64,000 nt of DNA, taken from NCBI RefSeq assembly GCF_054482525.1, contig NZ_CM137006.1; one strand, given 5' to 3'. Both the position numbers and the translations under genes were made by a program. This document shows positions 3,626-53,762 of the stretch, in pieces. Below the pieces are notes generated by a model. The model worked only from the letters and a program-made list of their open reading frames with translations, did not search any database and was not told where the DNA came from. Position 1 is the stretch's first letter. Each line of letters starts with the position of its first letter.

Positions 3626-4509
3626 GTGCTTATCTTATTAGGTTACCTGGTTGTTCTCGGTACAGTTTTCGGCGGTTATTTGATGACCGGTGGAAGCCTT
3701 GGAGCACTCTATCAACCCGCTGAACTGGTGATTATTGCCGGTGCAGGGATTGGGTCATTTATCGTCGGCAATAATGGCAAAGCGATTAAAGGCACGCTGA
3801 AGGCGCTGCCGTTGCTGTTTCGTCGCTCCAAATACACCAAAGCAATGTATATGGATCTGCTGGCTCTGCTTTATCGGTTGATGGCGAAATCGCGGCAGAT
3901 GGGGATGTTTTCGCTGGAACGTGATATTGAAAATCCCCGTGAGAGCGAGATCTTCGCCAGCTACCCACGCATCCTTGCGGATAGCGTCATGCTTGATTTT
4001 ATCGTCGATTATCTGCGTCTGATTATCAGCGGTCACATGAACACCTTCGAAATCGAAGCCCTGATGGATGAAGAGATTGAGACGCACGAAAGCGAAGCAG
4101 AAGTCCCGGCGAACAGTCTGGCGCTGGTCGGGGACTCACTTCCGGCGTTTGGTATTGTCGCGGCTGTGATGGGGGTCGTTCACGCGTTAGGTTCAGCCGA
4201 TCGTCCTGCCGCCGAGCTGGGGGCGCTTATCGCACATGCGATGGTGGGGACTTTCCTCGGTATTTTATTGGCTTACGGATTTATTTCCCCATTAGCGAGT
4301 GTTTTACGTCAGAAAAGCGCCGAAACCAGCAAAATGATGCAGTGCGTCAAAGTCACACTGCTTTCTAATCTGAACGGTTACGCACCGCCTATCGCCGTTG
4401 AGTTCGGTCGCAAAACGCTCTATTCCAGCGAACGTCCGTCGTTTATTGAACTGGAAGAGCATGTGCGTGCGGTGAAAAATCCGCAACAACAGACGACAAC
4501 CGAGGAAGC

Positions 4510-4513
<4 letters not shown>
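3626..4513 (+). CDS. motA: flagellar stator protein MotA
   Basis: 295-aa ORF, GTG start, multi-pass membrane protein matching MotA. Confidence 0.95.
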
Positions 4514-7405
<2,892 letters not shown>

Positions 7406-7929: not shown

Positions 7930-7955
7930 TTCTCCCGATTTCCTCAATTGCAATG

Positions 7956-7986
7956 AACCCGATGATCTGCGCATCGGGTTTTTTAT
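7956..7986 (+). terminator. rho-independent terminator after cheW
   Basis: stem AACCCGATG/CATCGGGTT followed by T-run. Confidence 0.6.
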
Positions 7987-8015
7987 TTCAATTTAGCGGT
8001 AGGTGGCATCTGCAA

Positions 8016-8042
8016 TAAAGTTTCCCCCCTCCTTGCCGATAA
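8016..8042 (+). promoter_or_regulatory. sigma28 (FliA) class III promoter of the tar-tap-cheRBYZ operon
   Basis: TAAAGTTT - 11 nt - GCCGATAA is an exact match to the sigma28 consensus, about 30 bp upstream of the tar ATG. Confidence 0.8.
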
Positions 8043-8073
8043 CGAGATCAACTTGTTTTCAGGAAGGTGCCTT

Positions 8074-9735
8074 ATGATTAACCGTATCCGCGTAGTCACG
8101 CTGTTGGTAATGGTGCTGGGGGTATTCGCACTGTTACCGCTTATTTCCGGCAGTCTGTTTTTTTCTTCCCTTCACCATAGCCAGAAGAGCTTTGTGGTTT
8201 CCAATCAATTACGGGAACAGCAGGGCGAGCTGACGTCAACCTGGGATTTAATGCTGCAAACGCGCATTAACCTGAGTCGTTCAGCGGTACGGATGATGAT
8301 GGATTCCTCAAATCAACAAAGTAACGCCAAAGTTGAATTACTCGATAGCGCCAGGAAAACATTGGCCCAGGCAGCGACGCATTATAAAAAATTCAAAAGC
8401 ATGGCACCGTTACCTGAAATGGTCGCTACCAGTCGTAATATTGATGAAAAATATAAAAACTATCACACAGCGTTAACTGAACTGATTGATTATCTTGATT
8501 ATGGCAATACTGGAGCTTATTTCGCTCAGCCAACCCAGGGAATGCAAAATGCAATGGGCGAAGCGTTTGCTCAGTACGCCCTCAGCAGTGAAAAACTGTA
8601 TCGCGATATCGTCACTGACAACGCAGATGATTACCGATTTGCCCAGTGGCAACTGGCGGTTATCGCGCTGGTGGTGGTATTGATTCTGCTGGTGGCGTGG
8701 TACGGCATTCGCCGTATGTTGCTTACACCGCTGGCAAAAATTATTGCTCACATTCGCGAAATCGCCAGTGGTAACCTGGCGAATACCCTGACCATTGACG
8801 GGCGCAGTGAAATGGGCGACCTGGCGCAGAGCGTTTCACATATGCAACGCTCTTTGACTGACACCGTCACTCATGTGCGTGAAGGTTCAGATGCCATCTA
8901 TGCCGGTACCCGTGAAATTGCGGCGGGCAACACCGATCTTTCCTCCCGTACTGAACAGCAGGCATCTGCGCTGGAAGAAACTGCCGCCAGCATGGAGCAG
9001 CTCACCGCGACAGTGAAGCAAAACGCCGATAACGCCCGCCAGGCCTCGCAACTGGCGCAAAGTGCCTCCGATACTGCCCAGCATGGCGGAAAAGTAGTGG
9101 ATGGTGTAGTGAAAACGATGCATGAGATCGCCGATAGTTCGAAGAAAATTGCCGACATTATCAGCGTTATCGATGGTATTGCCTTCCAGACTAATATCCT
9201 CGCGTTGAATGCCGCTGTTGAAGCCGCGCGTGCGGGTGAACAGGGCCGTGGTTTTGCCGTGGTGGCGGGCGAAGTGCGTAATCTTGCCAGTCGCAGCGCC
9301 CAGGCGGCAAAAGAGATCAAAGCCCTCATTGAAGACTCCGTCTCGCGCGTTGATACCGGTTCGGTGCTGGTCGAAAGCGCCGGGGAAACAATGAACAATA
9401 TCGTCAATGCTGTCACTCGCGTGACTGACATTATGGGCGAGATTGCATCGGCATCGGATGAACAGAGCCGTGGCATCGATCAAGTCGCATTGGCGGTTTC
9501 GGAAATGGATCGCGTCACGCAACAGAACGCATCGCTGGTGCAGGAATCAGCTGCCGCCGCAGCTGCGCTGGAAGAACAGGCCAGTCGTTTAACGCAAGCG
9601 GTTTCCGCGTTCCGTCTGGCAGCCAGCCCACTCACCAATAAACCGCAAACACCATCCCGTCCTGCCAGTGAGCAACCACCGGCACAGCCACGACTGCGAA
9701 TTACTGAACAAGATCCAAACTGGGAAACATTTTGA
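8074..9735 (+). CDS. tar: methyl-accepting chemotaxis protein II (aspartate/maltose receptor)
   Basis: ORF 8053..9735; the Tar N-terminus [11 protein letters not shown] starts at ATG 8074 giving 553 aa; C-terminal NWETF pentapeptide present. Confidence 0.93.
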
Positions 9736-9780
9736 CGAGTATCTACTAACGCGGTCATTGCCGCCTGATGGGGAGCGTTG

Positions 9781-11382
9781 ATGTTTAATCGTATTCGAAT
9801 TTCGACCACGCTGTTTTTAATTTTGATTCTCTGCGGGATCTTGCAGATTGGCAGTAACGGCATGTCTTTTTGGGCATTTCGCGACGATTTGCAACGACTG
9901 AATCAGGTCGAGCAGAGCAATCAGCAACGTGCGGCATTAGCGCAAACTCGGGCGGTAATGTTACAGGCCAGTACCGCGCTGAACAAAGCGGGCACTCTGA
10001 CGGCGCTTAGCTATCCGGCGGATGACATTAAAACGTTGATGACGACGGCGCGCGCCAGTCTGACGCAATCCACCACGCTGTTTAAAAGTTTTATGGCGAT
10101 GACTGCGGGCAACGAGCACGTCAGGGCCTTTCAAAAAGAGACGGAGAAAAGTTTTGCCCGCTGGCACAACGATCTCGAACATCAGGCGACCTGGCTTGAA
10201 AGTAATCAACTTTCGGATTTCCTCACTGCGCCGGTGCAGGAATCACAGAATGCGTTTGACGTTAACTTTGAGGCCTGGCAGCTGGAGATCAACCATGTGC
10301 TGGAAACTGCCAGTGCGCAAAGCCAGCGTAACTATCACATTTCGGCGCTGGTGTTTATCAGCATGATTATTGTTGCAGCGCTCTACATCAGCAGTGCGCT
10401 GTGGTGGACGCGCAAGATGATTGTTCAACCACTGGCCATCATCGGTAGCCATTTTGACAGCATTGCTGCGGGTAATCTGGCGCGTCCGATTGCGGTGTAT
10501 GGTCGCAATGAGATCACCGCCATTTTTGCCAGTCTGAAAACCATGCAGCAGGCTTTGCGTGGGACGGTAAGTGATGTGCGTAAGGGAAGCCAGGAGATGC
10601 ACATTGGTATCGCGGAGATTGTCGCAGGCAATAACGATCTCTCAAGTCGTACCGAACAGCAGGCGGCATCGCTGGCACAAACGGCCGCCAGTATGGAGCA
10701 ATTAACCGCCACGGTAGGGCAAAACGCCGATAACGCGCGCCAGGCGTCGGAACTGGCAAAAAATGCCGCGACAACGGCGCAGGCGGGCGGTGTTCAGGTC
10801 AGTACCATGACTCACACCATGCAGGAGATCGCCACCAGCTCGCAAAAAATTGGCGACATTATCAGCGTTATCGACGGCATTGCTTTCCAGACCAATATTC
10901 TGGCCCTGAATGCGGCAGTGGAAGCGGCTCGCGCCGGAGAGCAGGGGCGTGGTTTTGCGGTAGTGGCAGGTGAAGTGCGCAATCTTGCCAGCCGTAGCGC
11001 GCAGGCAGCAAAAGAGATCAAAGGGCTGATCGAAGAGTCAGTCAATCGTGTCCAGCAGGGTTCGAAACTGGTGAATAACGCCGCCGCGACCATGACTGAT
11101 ATTGTCAGTTCGGTGACCCGCGTGAACGACATTATGGGAGAAATTGCTTCGGCCTCGGAAGAACAACGGCGGGGGATTGAGCAGGTTGCGCAGGTTGTCA
11201 GCCAGATGGATCAGGTGACACAGCAGAACGCCTCCCTGGTAGAAGAAGCGGCGGTGGCAACGGAACAACTGGCGAATCAGGCCGACCATCTTTCTTCGCG
11301 CGTGGCGGTATTTACCCTTGAAGAACATGAAGTAGCACGACATGAGTCGGCGCAGTTACAAATTGCGCCAGTGGTATCCTGA
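9781..11382 (+). CDS. tap: methyl-accepting chemotaxis protein IV (dipeptide/pyrimidine receptor)
   Basis: 533-aa ORF from ATG 9781 (MFNRIRISTTLF); paralog of tar; lacks the NWETF tail. Confidence 0.92.
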   Translation: MFNRIRISTTLFLILILCGILQIGSNGMSFWAFRDDLQRLNQVEQSNQQRAALAQTRAVMLQASTALNKAGTLTALSYPADDIKTLMTTARASLTQSTTLFKSFMAMTAGNEHVRAFQKETEKSFARWHNDLEHQATWLESNQLSDFLTAPVQESQNAFDVNFEAWQLEINHVLETASAQSQRNYHISALVFISMIIVAALYISSALWWTRKMIVQPLAIIGSHFDSIAAGNLARPIAVYGRNEITAIFASLKTMQQALRGTVSDVRKGSQEMHIGIAEIVAGNNDLSSRTEQQAASLAQTAASMEQLTATVGQNADNARQASELAKNAATTAQAGGVQVSTMTHTMQEIATSSQKIGDIISVIDGIAFQTNILALNAAVEAARAGEQGRGFAVVAGEVRNLASRSAQAAKEIKGLIEESVNRVQQGSKLVNNAAATMTDIVSSVTRVNDIMGEIASASEEQRRGIEQVAQVVSQMDQVTQQNASLVEEAAVATEQLANQADHLSSRVAVFTLEEHEVARHESAQLQIAPVVS

Positions 11383-11400
11383 AGTGATTGAGAAGGCGCT

Positions 11401-12261
11401 ATGACTTCATCTCTGCCCTGTGGGCAAACGTCTTTATTGTTACAGATGACCGAGCGCCTGGCGCTTTCCGACGCGCATTTTCGGCGGATAAGTCAATTGA
11501 TCTATCAACGAGCCGGGATCGTTCTGGCTGACCATAAACGCGACATGGTTTACAACCGACTGGTTCGTCGTTTGCGTTCGCTGGGACTGACGGATTTCGG
11601 CCATTACTTGAACTTGCTGGAATCTAACCAGCACAGCGGTGAGTGGCAGGCGTTTATCAATTCGCTGACCACGAATCTGACGGCATTTTTCCGTGAGGCG
11701 CATCATTTTCCTCTGCTCGCGGATCACGCACGTCGCCGTTCTGGCGAGTATCGCGTATGGAGCGCGGCGGCTTCGACCGGCGAAGAGCCGTACAGCATTG
11801 CGATGACGCTGGCTGACACATTGGGCACCGTGCCCGGACGCTGGAAAGTGTTTGCCAGTGATATCGACACCGAAGTGCTGGAAAAAGCCAGAAGCGGTAT
11901 TTATCGCCATGAAGAGTTGAAAAACCTGACGCCGCAGCAACTGCAACGGTATTTCATGCGAGGGACGGGACCGCATGAAGGGCTGGTACGCGTGCGTCAG
12001 GAGCTGGCGAACTATGTTGATTTTGCCCCGCTGAATTTACTGGCGAAACAGTACACCGTGCCGGGGCCGTTTGATGCGATCTTCTGTCGTAACGTCATGA
12101 TCTACTTCGATCAAACTACCCAGCAGGAGATTTTGCGCCGCTTTGTTCCGCTCCTTAAACCCGACGGATTGCTGTTTGCGGGTCACTCTGAAAACTTTAG
12201 CCACCTTGAGCGCCGCTTCACGCTGCGTGGTCAGACGGTGTATGCGCTAAGTAAGGATTAA
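11401..12261 (+). CDS. cheR: chemotaxis protein methyltransferase CheR
   Basis: 286-aa ORF matching CheR. Confidence 0.95.
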
Positions 12262-51031: not shown

Positions 51032-51436
<405 letters not shown>

Positions 51437-51439
51437 TGG

Positions 51440-51560
51440 CTTCTGATAATTCGATTGACCGTTGGCGGATGCGGCGCGAATGCCTTGTCCGCCCCACAAC
51501 GCACCACAATCGTAGGCCTGAGAAGACGCAACAGCGTCGCATCGGGCAATCAGCATCAAA
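51440..51560. repeat. REP-like palindromic elements between yebF and yebE
   Basis: GGATGCGGCGCGAATGCCTTGTCCGCC and CGTAGGCCTGAGAAGACGCAACAGCGTCGCATCGGGC motifs. Confidence 0.5.
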
Positions 51561-51762
51561 CAGTGCTACTCAAAACGTCAAACTACTTTCACCTAAAATA
51601 CCCTTATCACCTGATATACAGTGAACACCTTACCTGGCGCGAATTTCTTTGAATAACGGCCTACCGACCCGCTTATTTGCGCATCTTTTGTCTCGATATA
51701 CATTTTCTGACATCCTCATCCGCTATGCTACAGGCACTAAAAATGGTTATTGAGGAGCAAAT

Positions 51763-52422
51763 ATGGCTAACTGGTTAAATCAACTGCAATCCTTGCTTGG
51801 GCAAAGCAGTTCTTCTGCCTCCTCGTCTGCGGATCAGGGATTGGGCAAACTTTTAGTGCCAGGCGCATTAGGCGGACTGGCTGGGCTGCTGGTCGCAAAT
51901 AAATCAGCACGTAAACTTCTTACGAAATATGGCACCAACGCGTTACTGGTTGGCGGCGGAGCGGTCGCGGGTACGGTGCTGTGGAATAAATACAAAGATA
52001 AAATTCGCGCGGCGCATCAGGACGAACCGCAGTTTGGCGCGCAAAGTACGCCGCTGGATGAGCGTACGGAACGTTTGATCCTTGCGCTGGTCTTTGCCGC
52101 TAAAAGTGATGGTCATATTGATGCCAAAGAACGTGCGGCAATCGACCTGCAATTGCGTGAAGCCGGCGTGGAAGAACAGGGGCGTGTACTCATTGAGCAG
52201 GCAATCGAACAACCGCTGGATCCACAACGCCTGGCTACCGGGGTCCGCAATGAAGAAGAGGCGCTGGAAATCTATTTCCTGAGCTGCGCGGCTATTGATA
52301 TTGACCATTTTATGGAACGCAGTTACCTGAATGCACTGGGTGACGCGCTGAAAATCCCCCAGGATGTTCGTGACGGCATTGAACGCGATCTCGAACAGCA
52401 AAAACGTACTTTGGCGGAATAA
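51763..52422 (+). CDS. yebE: DUF533-family inner membrane protein YebE
   Basis: 219-aa ORF matching YebE. Confidence 0.9.
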
Positions 52423-52585
52423 TTCCGCTCTCTGGATAGCCTGAAGTTGACTATTTCGGGCTATCCAGAACCGCACAGCCATTTGAGCAGGCTGATTTTC
52501 TCTGTCTGCATAACATTCGATATCCGCGCCATTACCTGTCATCATGTGACTGCTCCCCGCCCTGTCGGGCGAGGCTTCCCACTTC

Positions 52586-53762
52586 TTAAGCCGCAACCGT
52601 CTGTGTGACGGATTTACGCTGGCCTCCATGGGCAGAAACGACGAGTCCCGCCGCTTGTAATTCCAGTATGCCCTTGCGTTTGATGTTGAGCGCCGCGTTG
52701 ATATCGCGGTCATGTTCAACTCCACACTCTGGACACTGCCAGATGCGCTTATGTAATGGCATCTCCGACATTTTGTGACAGCAGCAGTGGCAGGTCTTCG
52801 AACTGGCGAACCATTGATCCAGTTTCACCAGATGCACACCTTTCTCTGTTGCTTTGTATTCCAGTTTTGTGATGAATCCAGACCATCCAGCATCGCCTAT
52901 CGCACGAGCCAGATGGTGATTTTTCATCATATTTGCCGTTTTCAATGTCTCGACAATTACCGCTTGGTTTTCGTCAACAATTGCGCGAGATAACTTGTGC
53001 TGGAAATCGGCACGGGCACTGGCTACCCGTTCGTGAACGGCTGCAAGTTGTATTCTGGCTTTGCGCCTGTTTGCGCTCCCTTTTTTCTTACGGGACAGTG
53101 CTTCCTGCTTCCTGCTTCCGGCGCAGGTTGCGACTTGCATTGATTAGGTGGCGGGGACTGGCAATTTTATTGCCGTCCGATTTGATGACAAAATGCGCCA
53201 GCCCCATATCCAGCCCTGTCACATTTGATATCAGTGCGGGCTTTGCCGGCGCTTCCATCCCGTCGTCACAGAGTAACGACGCGTAGTATTTCCCGGTTGC
53301 GCTGCGGCTCAACGTGATACTTTTCAGCATTCCCGTAATTTCACGATGTAAACGCGCTTCAATCGGCAAGATTTTCGGTATTTTTATCGCACCATCAAGG
53401 ACTTTTATGCCAACACAATGATAGCTCGATTGTCTGCCGTGTTTACTTTTAAAGGTTGGTTTACCTGCTTTCAGTTTCGGATTGAAAAAGTTAGAAAAAG
53501 CCACGTCGAGGTTAATTACCGCCTGCTGCAACGCAATAGAATCATATTCTTTAAGCCATCCATACCGGCGGGATTTCTTCGCCACTGCAAGCAGTGGTTT
53601 GAGGTCTTTACGCGGGTTTAAATTTACGCGGTGCCGCTGGTAAGAATGTTTCTTGATATGCAGAGCTTTGTTGTACGCAAAACGCACTGCACCGAACTGG
53701 GCGTTGATAAATTCAGCCTGTTCTGGTGTCGGATAGATGCGTACTTTTGTTGCTCTTAACAT
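52586..53762 (-). pseudogene. tnpB: tnpB (IS605 OrfB / RNA-guided nuclease family), split by a frameshift
   Basis: ORF 53088..53762 (N-terminal part, HTH and RuvC-I GLDMGL) and ORF 52586..53140 (RuvC-II IVETL, zinc finger CHCC...CPEC, RuvC-III DRDINAA) are adjacent and in different frames; the break coincides with three tandem copies of a 7-bp unit at 53100..53120. Confidence 0.75.

Follow-up and report, generated by a model that had tools for sequence, protein, structure and literature searches.

The adjacent chemoreceptor genes tar and tap of Escherichia coli share a diverged direct repeat, and two independent deletions of exactly 1701 bp have produced an in-frame tar–tap hybrid in three of 5,426 complete E. 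coli genomes (about 0.06%). The explanation that best accounts for the data as a whole, and which we consider very probable, is that of old paralogs in which constraint on the proteins holds a weak repeat that occasionally gives rise to such a fusion. That tar and tap are paralogs was recognised in the early 1980s and is already documented, textbook knowledge. What is added here is of modest importance, namely a measure of how weak the recombination substrate is (73% identity, identical runs of at most 21–24 nt, a similarity stemming mostly from protein constraint) and the frequency of the fusion in the population, as compared with an unrelated loss of tap by deletion (19.5% of the genomes).

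The tar and tap genes and their repeat

The stretch of 64,000 nucleotides that was analysed (the window) shows 100% identity to the chromosome of E. coli PCN033, in which tar and tap are annotated; the tar/tap region is 97.8–98.9% identical to that of other full-length E. coli among the matches listed. The two genes adjoin on the same strand between cheW and cheR, in a cluster with the order cheA-cheW-tar-tap-cheR-cheB-cheY-cheZ.

8074..9735, + strand: tar, annotated aspartate/maltose chemoreceptor (MCP II), 553 amino acids, ends in NWETF (PCN033 annotation, Pfam)
9781..11382, + strand: tap, annotated dipeptide chemoreceptor (MCP IV), 533 amino acids, ends in ...QIAPVVS (PCN033 annotation, Pfam)
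9718..9732, + strand: NWETF codons, the CheR/CheB tether, present in Tar and absent from all tar–tap fusions (translations)

Near-identity to the characterised K-12 genes suggests that Tar recognises aspartate and maltose, and Tap dipeptides. TarH (PF02203), HAMP (PF00672) and MCPsignal (PF00015) domains were found above the curated cut-offs in Tar, in Tap and in both hybrids described below. Overall the two proteins display 47% amino acid identity, which rises to 78% in the signalling block (208 codons). Adjacent, on one strand and with the same three-domain layout, the genes are indeed the tandem paralogs that the initial annotation took them for. Their C-termini are ...DPNWETF in Tar and ...QIAPVVS in Tap, the latter without the pentapeptide, which tethers CheR and CheB and, among receptors, is carried only by Tar and Tsr (PMC7390727).

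A single tar–tap alignment was returned by blastn, joining 8914..9539 to 10615..11240 with 73.4% nucleotide identity and an E-value of 5.5e-106, far above chance. The copies of the repeat and the tracts of identity within it are as follows.

8914..9539, + strand: repeat copy 1, in tar, 626 nt, spanning methylation helix 1, the hairpin tip and methylation helix 2 (blastn)
10615..11240, + strand: repeat copy 2, in tap, 1701 nt downstream of copy 1, in frame and ungapped (blastn)
9154..9321 (tap 10855..11022), + strand: codons of a 56-residue stretch identical in Tar and Tap (DIISVIDG...AAKEIK), the longest in-register amino acid run
9153..9173 (tap 10854..10874), + strand: longest identical run, 21 nt; 24 nt (9153..9176) in K-12 alleles (blastn alignment)
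9018..9035 (tap 10719..10736), + strand: second-longest identical run, 18 nt (blastn alignment)
9307..9322 (tap 11008..11023), + strand: third-longest identical run, 16 nt (blastn alignment)

The copies are direct, with the same orientation and an in-frame register, since the offset of 1701 equals 3 x 567. Ungapped and in register, the block shows 72.6% nucleotide identity, and its most similar 300 nt reach 76%. The initial annotation had described direct repeats about 1.7 kb apart; as a distance this holds, with the register at 1701, but a literal offset of 1700 yields 22.7% identity, which is random. Its 'long near-identical DNA' did not survive measurement, the segment 9130..9560 being 73.3% identical with longest runs of 21, 18 and 16 nt. 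The 57-residue peptide that it gave as an example occurs exactly in Tar (from residue 360), but Tap has G in place of the first A, leaving the identical run of 56 residues, and the DNA beneath this run is 83.9% identical (27 mismatches in 168 nt). The near-identity as first worded is thus partly confirmed. With about 73% identity and a longest run of 21 nt, the block lies narrowly above the level (below about 70%, no long runs) which had been set as refuting the observation. Upon shuffling of the match positions, the longest run averaged 17.4 nt and 17% of shuffles reached 21 nt or more; the 21-nt run is what shuffling yields at this level of identity.

Protein constraint and gene conversion as possible sources of the similarity

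Most of the DNA similarity between tar and tap is a by-product of protein constraint. From the two proteins and codon usage, an identity of 66.8 +/- 1.3% would be expected for the repeat block, against the 72.6% observed, and identical codons at identical amino acids number 83 where 62.7 +/- 5.8 are expected (z = 3.5). This modest excess implies that protein constraint and average codon usage leave part of the DNA similarity unexplained; this part may reflect what is left of common ancestry, codon preferences at particular sites or conversion in the distant past. Both excesses would also suit another reading, in which the similarity stems from a duplication of recent date or from concerted evolution by continuing gene conversion between the two genes, in place of protein constraint. 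We consider this very improbable, since third-codon-position identity in the core is just 0.43–0.63, the longest identical run falls within the shuffling expectation, and aer, which is unlinked, resembles the tap core as much as tar does (83.6% for aer and 81.1% for tar over the same 122 nt).

Direct probing for conversion was limited to the 117-nt segment between the 18- and 21-nt islands; elsewhere in the block other chemoreceptor paralogs cross-match. In more than 5,300 genomes no converted allele of this segment was found in tap, and no tap sequence was found in the same segment of tar besides hybrid A. Neither homogenisation of synonymous sites nor, in this segment, exchange of patches between the two genes was detected. 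Six SNPs clustered at 9072..9105 in the tar gene of PCN033 were considered as a possible patch of tap. This was rejected, since four of the six bases fit neither gene and all six changes are synonymous.

Natural fusions, their crossover sites and the common loss of tap

A survey of strains for tar–tap hybrids, recommended in the initial annotation, was carried out with a synthetic query which gives one joined match only if a genome lacks about 1.6 kb or more between the 5' part of tar and the 3' part of tap. The fusion genomes are ETEC4088 (GCF_030013145.1), ET474 (GCF_041320105.1) and PEC389 (GCF_056989455.1), all three with a joined-match span of 1600 nt. Their gene order is cheW, a 535 amino acid 'tar' and cheR. 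The carriers are wild isolates, from pig and frog, and the hybrid alleles of ET474 and PEC389 are identical although the countries and hosts differ. Against the K-12 parent alleles, a single crossover fits 802/803 and 801/803 informative sites in the two hybrid genes, and the flanks of the hybrids represent two distinct backgrounds, with 20 differences over 2374 nt on the upstream side; fusion has taken place at least twice in nature. Both hybrid proteins keep a full-length MCPsignal match and end in ...QIAPVVS. Two events, each with a single switch of parentage and a deletion of the predicted size, support the reading of tar and tap as tandem paralogs that serve as a substrate for unequal recombination, albeit a rarely used one with a weak repeat.

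The two hybrid proteins are also found, letter for letter, in many other assemblies: one is on 28 contigs, in 58 blocks of independent assemblies, and the other on 71 contigs, in 140 such blocks. The contigs derive from NCBI, ENA and Logan assemblies, and the che gene context is the same throughout. In one hybrid carrier (L010) cheR is split. RefSeq names the hybrids plain 'tar', and assembly is known to err by collapsing repeats, which raises the question of whether the three are artefacts of assembly or annotation in which two similar genes have been merged. This we regard as extremely improbable: assemblers do not collapse copies that are 27% diverged, the deletion is precisely in register and in frame, identical alleles are present in two strains from different countries and hosts, and the same proteins recur on the contigs just mentioned. 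No published report of natural tar–tap hybrids was found in a literature search that stopped short of the original laboratory-fusion articles.

The crossover of the ETEC4088 hybrid lies within the 18-nt run (9018..9035 / 10719..10736) and that of the ET474/PEC389 hybrid within the 21-nt run at 9153..9173, which in K-12 alleles extends to 24 nt. The natural joints are at Tar residues 315–321 and 360–368. No crossover in the 16-nt run was seen among the hybrids from the 5,426-genome survey. Under a model of uniform crossover, the probability of two events falling in the two longest runs is 0.002, the test having been picked post hoc; any preference of crossover for the longest runs rests on n = 2, because two events were found in total. 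The natural crossovers occupy short islands of identity and not 'long near-identical DNA'.

The reciprocal product, a duplication with the order tar, tap-tar hybrid, tap, was sought through the copy number of the tap 5' region, which occurs at 4323 places in 4321 genomes; one of the extra places is a split tap in WWCOL-256, and one chromosome has two such places. In these searches, where joined matches look alike for the duplication and for the normal gene order, no more than one or two chromosomes are unaccounted for. A partial tap match in EC2001, considered as a further fusion, is actually a deletion from motA to tap.

Loss of tap is far more widespread than fusion and is unconnected with the tar/tap repeat. 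A deletion of 1374 bp inside tap, which leaves tar intact, has its junction in 1,059 genomes (19.5%), and uses an 8-nt microhomology within tap.

9900..9914, + strand: upstream arm of the 1374-bp tap deletion, a 15-nt imperfect repeat, GAATCAGGTCGAGCA
11274..11288, + strand: downstream arm of the 1374-bp tap deletion, GAATCAGGCCGACCA; the exact common core is the 8-nt GAATCAGG

A class of about 1,100 genomes with 61% coverage of the query was at first a candidate set of tar–tap hybrids and was rejected, the lesion being this intragenic deletion with tar intact. Loss of Tap in phylogroup B2 and in uropathogenic E. coli is described in PMC12623472 and PMC3559539, which cite Lane and co-workers (2006) and Borziak and co-workers (2013) for it. 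Like the hybrids, this is a natural deletion at the locus which removes Tap function; it is, however, the 1374-bp intragenic deletion with a frameshift that spares tar, whereas the hybrids use the tar/tap repeat.

Proposed formation of the fusions and their possible meaning

We propose that tar and tap are old adjacent paralogs whose sensing halves have diverged past any DNA similarity, while the near-constant protein of the signalling region preserves an in-frame direct repeat of 626 bp, with copies that lie 1701 bp apart and are about 73% identical as DNA. When sister chromosomes misalign at the longest identity islands, of 18 to 24 nt, the exact 1701-bp deletion and an in-frame fusion would occasionally result. 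The repeat has none of the long stretches of identity on which efficient RecA-dependent recombination depends. In E. coli the minimal efficient processing segment (MEPS) ranges from 23 to 90 bp according to pathway, with 23–27 bp for RecBCD and up to 90 for others (PMC3758752), and homeologous exchange begins where identity is sufficiently long (PMC8918686). No tract clearly of MEPS length was found, the 21 nt of this sequence falling short and the 24 nt of K-12 alleles being borderline. Divergent at 27% of positions, and with runs of at most 21 nt here and 24 nt in K-12, the repeat offers a weak basis for unequal exchange, and fusion events are rare, two in the genomes surveyed.

As to the enzymology, we lean slightly towards RecA-independent misalignment at short homologies, of the slipped-mispairing type, over a RecA-mediated homeologous crossover. 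The latter would have the 626-bp copies recombine from a start in the longest tract while escaping mismatch repair, with no slippage, and it is a plausible competitor to which we give somewhat less than even credence. The 24-nt run of K-12-type alleles falls in the lower bound of the MEPS (23–27 bp), the event with more carriers used this 21/24-nt run, and the flanking 73% similarity could stabilise pairing. The other event, however, took place in a run of 18 nt, short of the MEPS (PMC3758752), and MutS/MutL should abort the extension of heteroduplex at 27% divergence (PMC8918686). Furthermore, the commonest deletion at the locus arose at an 8-nt microhomology, which shows that RecA-independent deletion works here and favours the short-homology misalignment.

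Hybrids of this type have laboratory counterparts. Slocum, Halden and Parkinson reportedly obtained tar–tap fusions in 1987 by recombination between the 3' regions of the two genes, which gave hybrid transducers said to have the sensing specificity of Tar with altered signalling and adaptation. As in the natural hybrids, the N-terminus of Tar was reportedly joined in frame to the C-terminus of Tap by a deletion between homologous 3' regions. Those fusions were selected in laboratory K-12, whereas the ones described here are wild, have mapped junctions (18-nt and 21/24-nt) and are present in many assemblies. Weerasuriya, Schneider and Manson are said to have engineered Tar-Tap and Tap-Tar chimeras in 1998, and to have described the Tap cytoplasmic domain as lacking the last 18 residues, including NWETF, and as a weak generator of the clockwise signal. 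Their chimeras resemble the natural hybrids in combining the sensor of Tar with the cytoplasmic domain of Tap; the engineered joints reportedly lie in the linker that follows the second membrane-spanning segment, while the natural joints are far downstream, and therefore HAMP and methylation helix 1 stay Tar. Spontaneous deletions in lacI, reported by Albertini et al. in 1982, are likewise said to occur at short homologies, with the best-matching repeat as the hot spot. Both systems involve deletions of roughly 1 kb with end points in short direct repeats. Unlike those of lacI, the short tar–tap tracts sit inside a longer in-frame block of 73% identity, and the product is consequently a functional-looking chimera and not a null allele.

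The fusion retains the ligand-binding domain and membrane-spanning segments of Tar along with its HAMP domain and methylation helix 1, and its hairpin tip and C-terminus are Tap-derived; it therefore has neither the Tap sensor nor the NWETF tether for CheR and CheB. A hybrid strain would probably still sense aspartate and maltose, would have lost dipeptide taxis and would rely on Tsr for adaptation. It is conceivable, though we think it unlikely, that the chimeras are functional receptors selected in certain animal-associated E. coli lineages, with the aspartate and maltose sensing of Tar placed on a Tap-type signalling and adaptation module, and with NWETF and the dipeptide sensor both gone. 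This suggestion leans on the two independent events, the intact frames, the full domain matches and the tens of contigs in which the hybrids stand beside che genes. If it is true, recurrent formation at two islands would represent a natural domain-swapping route in chemoreceptor evolution.

Since annotation pipelines name the chimeras 'tar', surveys of receptor repertoires would score them as 'Tar present, Tap lost' and miss the swap of modules. For the recombination of chemoreceptor genes, the occurrence of both natural crossovers in the two longest islands provides a neat natural case of exchange guided by short homology between diverged repeats.

Extent and origin of the tar/tap repeat

Megablast comparison with 5,426 complete E. 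coli genomes revealed a 100% match of 7930..11400 to E. coli PCN033, in which the annotated gene order is motB, cheA, cheW, tar, tap, cheR, cheB, cheY, cheZ. The remainder of the window, from otsA to yebT, is ordinary core chromosome. An ISEc46 element (IS200/IS605 family) containing tnpA and a frameshifted tnpB (InsQ) is found between ptrB and yebE, at about 51150..52808 as mapped from the record annotation. The coordinates of tar and tap in the initial annotation are exactly those of PCN033, with ATG start codons at 8074 and 9781; a mechanical ORF list begins these genes at TTG 8053 and TTG 9778, respectively. Tar and Tap alike possess TarH, HAMP and MCPsignal domains, and Tar ends in NWETF, which Tap lacks.

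Features of the tar/tap repeat (window positions)
8074..9735 (+), tar
9781..11382 (+), tap
8914..9539 and 10615..11240, in-register direct repeat (the block)
9153..9173, longest identical tar/tap run, 21 nt
9018..9035, second identical run, 18 nt
9307..9322, third identical run, 16 nt

The block is the sole DNA alignment between the two genes, a single diagonal with an offset of 1701 nt (73.4% identity, E 5.5e-106), and a second repeat scan identified direct repeats of 300 nt (76%) and 185 nt (74%) on this same diagonal. The sensing halves of the proteins show 13–37% amino-acid identity in 30-codon windows; DNA alignment between these halves was sought and none was found. The similarity is therefore real and far beyond chance, but its initial description as long near-identical DNA was overstated. 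The segment 9130..9560, to which that description was applied, shows 73.3% identity at the true register but only 22.7% at the literal offset of 1700. Likewise, a peptide of 57 residues said to be shared is exact in Tar but begins with G in Tap, leaving an identical run of 56 residues, the DNA under which is 83.9% identical. When matches and mismatches were permuted along the block, the longest run averaged 17.4 and reached 21 in 17% of shuffles, so there are no unusually long identical tracts between tar and tap. The signalling region is near-identical as protein and moderately similar as DNA.

Third-codon-position identity in the core is 0.43–0.63. When codons for both actual proteins were drawn randomly from local codon usage, the expected identity of the block was 66.8 ± 1.3%, against 72.6% observed. 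The similarity thus arises for the most part as a by-product of purifying selection acting on the signalling domain. This does not explain a modest surplus: where the amino acids agree, 83 codons are identical too, compared with an expected 62.7 ± 5.8 (z = 3.5). The hairpin-tip core of tap (10879..11000) is 83.6% identical to the unlinked aer and 81.1% to tar and, given this likeness, the similarity is not peculiar to the tandem pair. Between dispersed chemoreceptor genes, ectopic exchange should in principle be no less feasible than between tar and tap. In more than 5,300 genomes probed with the 117 nt that separate the 18-nt and 21-nt runs, no tap sequence was seen in tar except in one hybrid, and no tar sequence in tap; there is no sign of ongoing gene conversion.

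Compared with K-12 and B2 alleles, PCN033 tar has six synonymous changes within 34 nt (9072..9105), and an identity to it of 99% or more over 9036..9152 is seen in only 293 genomes. A tap origin for this cluster was rejected, the changes not being tap-derived. A further PCN033 change at 9174 reduces the longest tar/tap run from the 24 nt of K-12 to 21 nt; strains therefore differ in how good a recombination substrate they carry.

Natural tar–tap hybrids

Complete E. coli genomes were surveyed with a synthetic query in which tar 8200..8800 was joined to 11289..11500, a design giving one joined match only where at least about 1.6 kb is missing between the pieces. Exactly three of the 5,426 genomes were detected, each with a 1600-nt span equivalent to a 1701-bp deletion, and all carry cheW, a 1608-nt gene annotated 'tar', and cheR, in that order. 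Strains with tar-tap hybrids, which the initial annotation had proposed to look for, thus exist.

Carriers of the 1701-bp deletion
ETEC4088, pig, Belgium
ET474, frog, China
PEC389, pig, Korea

In this survey, tar 5' and tap 3' were both unmatched in 39 genomes, and tar or tap sequence occurred on one or two records labelled plasmids. Of relevance to the reciprocal duplication product, one or two chromosomes hold the tested segments twice, the synthetic query matching as many as 4 places per genome; large duplications or misassemblies may account for these cases.

Scoring of all sites that differ between tar and tap revealed a single clean switch from tar to tap in each hybrid, one crossover fitting 802/803 and 801/803 informative sites with K-12 (C600) parent alleles. 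The switch lies inside the 18-nt run (Tar codons 315–321) in ETEC4088, and in the 21-nt run (24 nt in K-12-type alleles; codons 360–368) in ET474 and PEC389. The latter two are identical over 6.6 kb and have K-12-like flanks, from which the upstream flank of ETEC4088 shows 20 differences in 2374 nt; these two backgrounds indicate two independent fusion events. Between them they occupy the two longest identical runs (probability 0.002 under a uniform model, in a post hoc test with n = 2). Exact copies of the two hybrid proteins occur on 28 and 71 contigs of public assemblies and are indexed in 58 and 140 collection blocks, with constant gene context, and this recurrence rules out an assembly artefact. 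Both hybrids retain full-length domain matches, differ from K-12 Tar by 74 and 56 residues, and lack its last 18 residues, including NWETF. One genome with the 21/24-nt-run hybrid, GCA_907172595.1, has its cheR broken into two ORFs, 210 and 89 aa long (4127..4986 of locus L010), through either sequencing error or further decay of chemotaxis genes.

Laboratory tar-to-tap fusions through the homologous 3' regions were reportedly obtained in 1987. It is well established that tar and tap are paralogues with conserved cytoplasmic domains and that Tar/Tap chimeras can function (references in PMC2229510), and the repeat as initially annotated was, with those fusions, already known. For natural hybrids no report was found in the searchable literature, which is thin in the relevant journals, and we claim no priority.

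Deletion of tap and formation of the fusions

The megablast query was covered whole in 4,321 of the 5,426 complete genomes and to 61% in about 1,100. That the latter class represents hybrids was rejected, since strain 82.0311 (L001) retains an intact tar and has lost 1374 bp from within tap.

Arms and junction of the tap deletion (13/15-nt matching repeat)
9900..9914 and 11274..11288, repeat arms in the window
3470..3484 of L001, junction

The junction falls within an 8-nt exact microhomology core, GAATCAGG, and the remnant carries an additional frameshift. A 111-nt junction probe located this lesion in 1,059 of the 5,426 genomes. Tap loss is known in phylogroup B2 and uropathogenic strains, as stated in PMC12623472 and PMC3559539, and the 1374-bp deletion is its molecular lesion. 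A distinct large deletion in EC2001 (NZ_CP133811.1; L011 3840..4580) spans the region between motA and tap, with its end inside tap near position 10803 of the window. With it go motB, cheA, cheW, tar and two-thirds of tap at the 5' end, and so this strain should be non-chemotactic and non-motile.

Short-homology misalignment is the type of event described for lacI deletions. In the tar–tap fusions, exactly 1701 bp was deleted between diverged direct repeats lying in frame, with crossovers in islands of 18 and 21–24 nt. Efficient RecA-dependent exchange in E. coli requires 23–90 bp of uninterrupted identity; homeologous exchange begins where identity suffices, and heteroduplex reaching into mismatches is aborted by mismatch repair (PMC3758752, PMC8918686). 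The tar/tap repeat would lie at or below this threshold, which fits the rarity of the fusions, with two events among 5,426 genomes. A live alternative for their origin is exchange by RecA at the 24-nt run. We lean slightly towards RecA-independent misalignment at short homologies, since one event used 18 nt only and the same locus has undergone the 8-nt microhomology deletion. The natural hybrids support the initial proposal that the repeat is a substrate for unequal recombination, albeit a weak one at which events are rare.

The absence of NWETF on Tap has been described (PMC7390727). From this, and from hybrid-receptor papers of 1987 and 1998, the hybrids are predicted to keep aspartate and maltose sensing, to lose dipeptide taxis and to depend on Tsr for adaptation.
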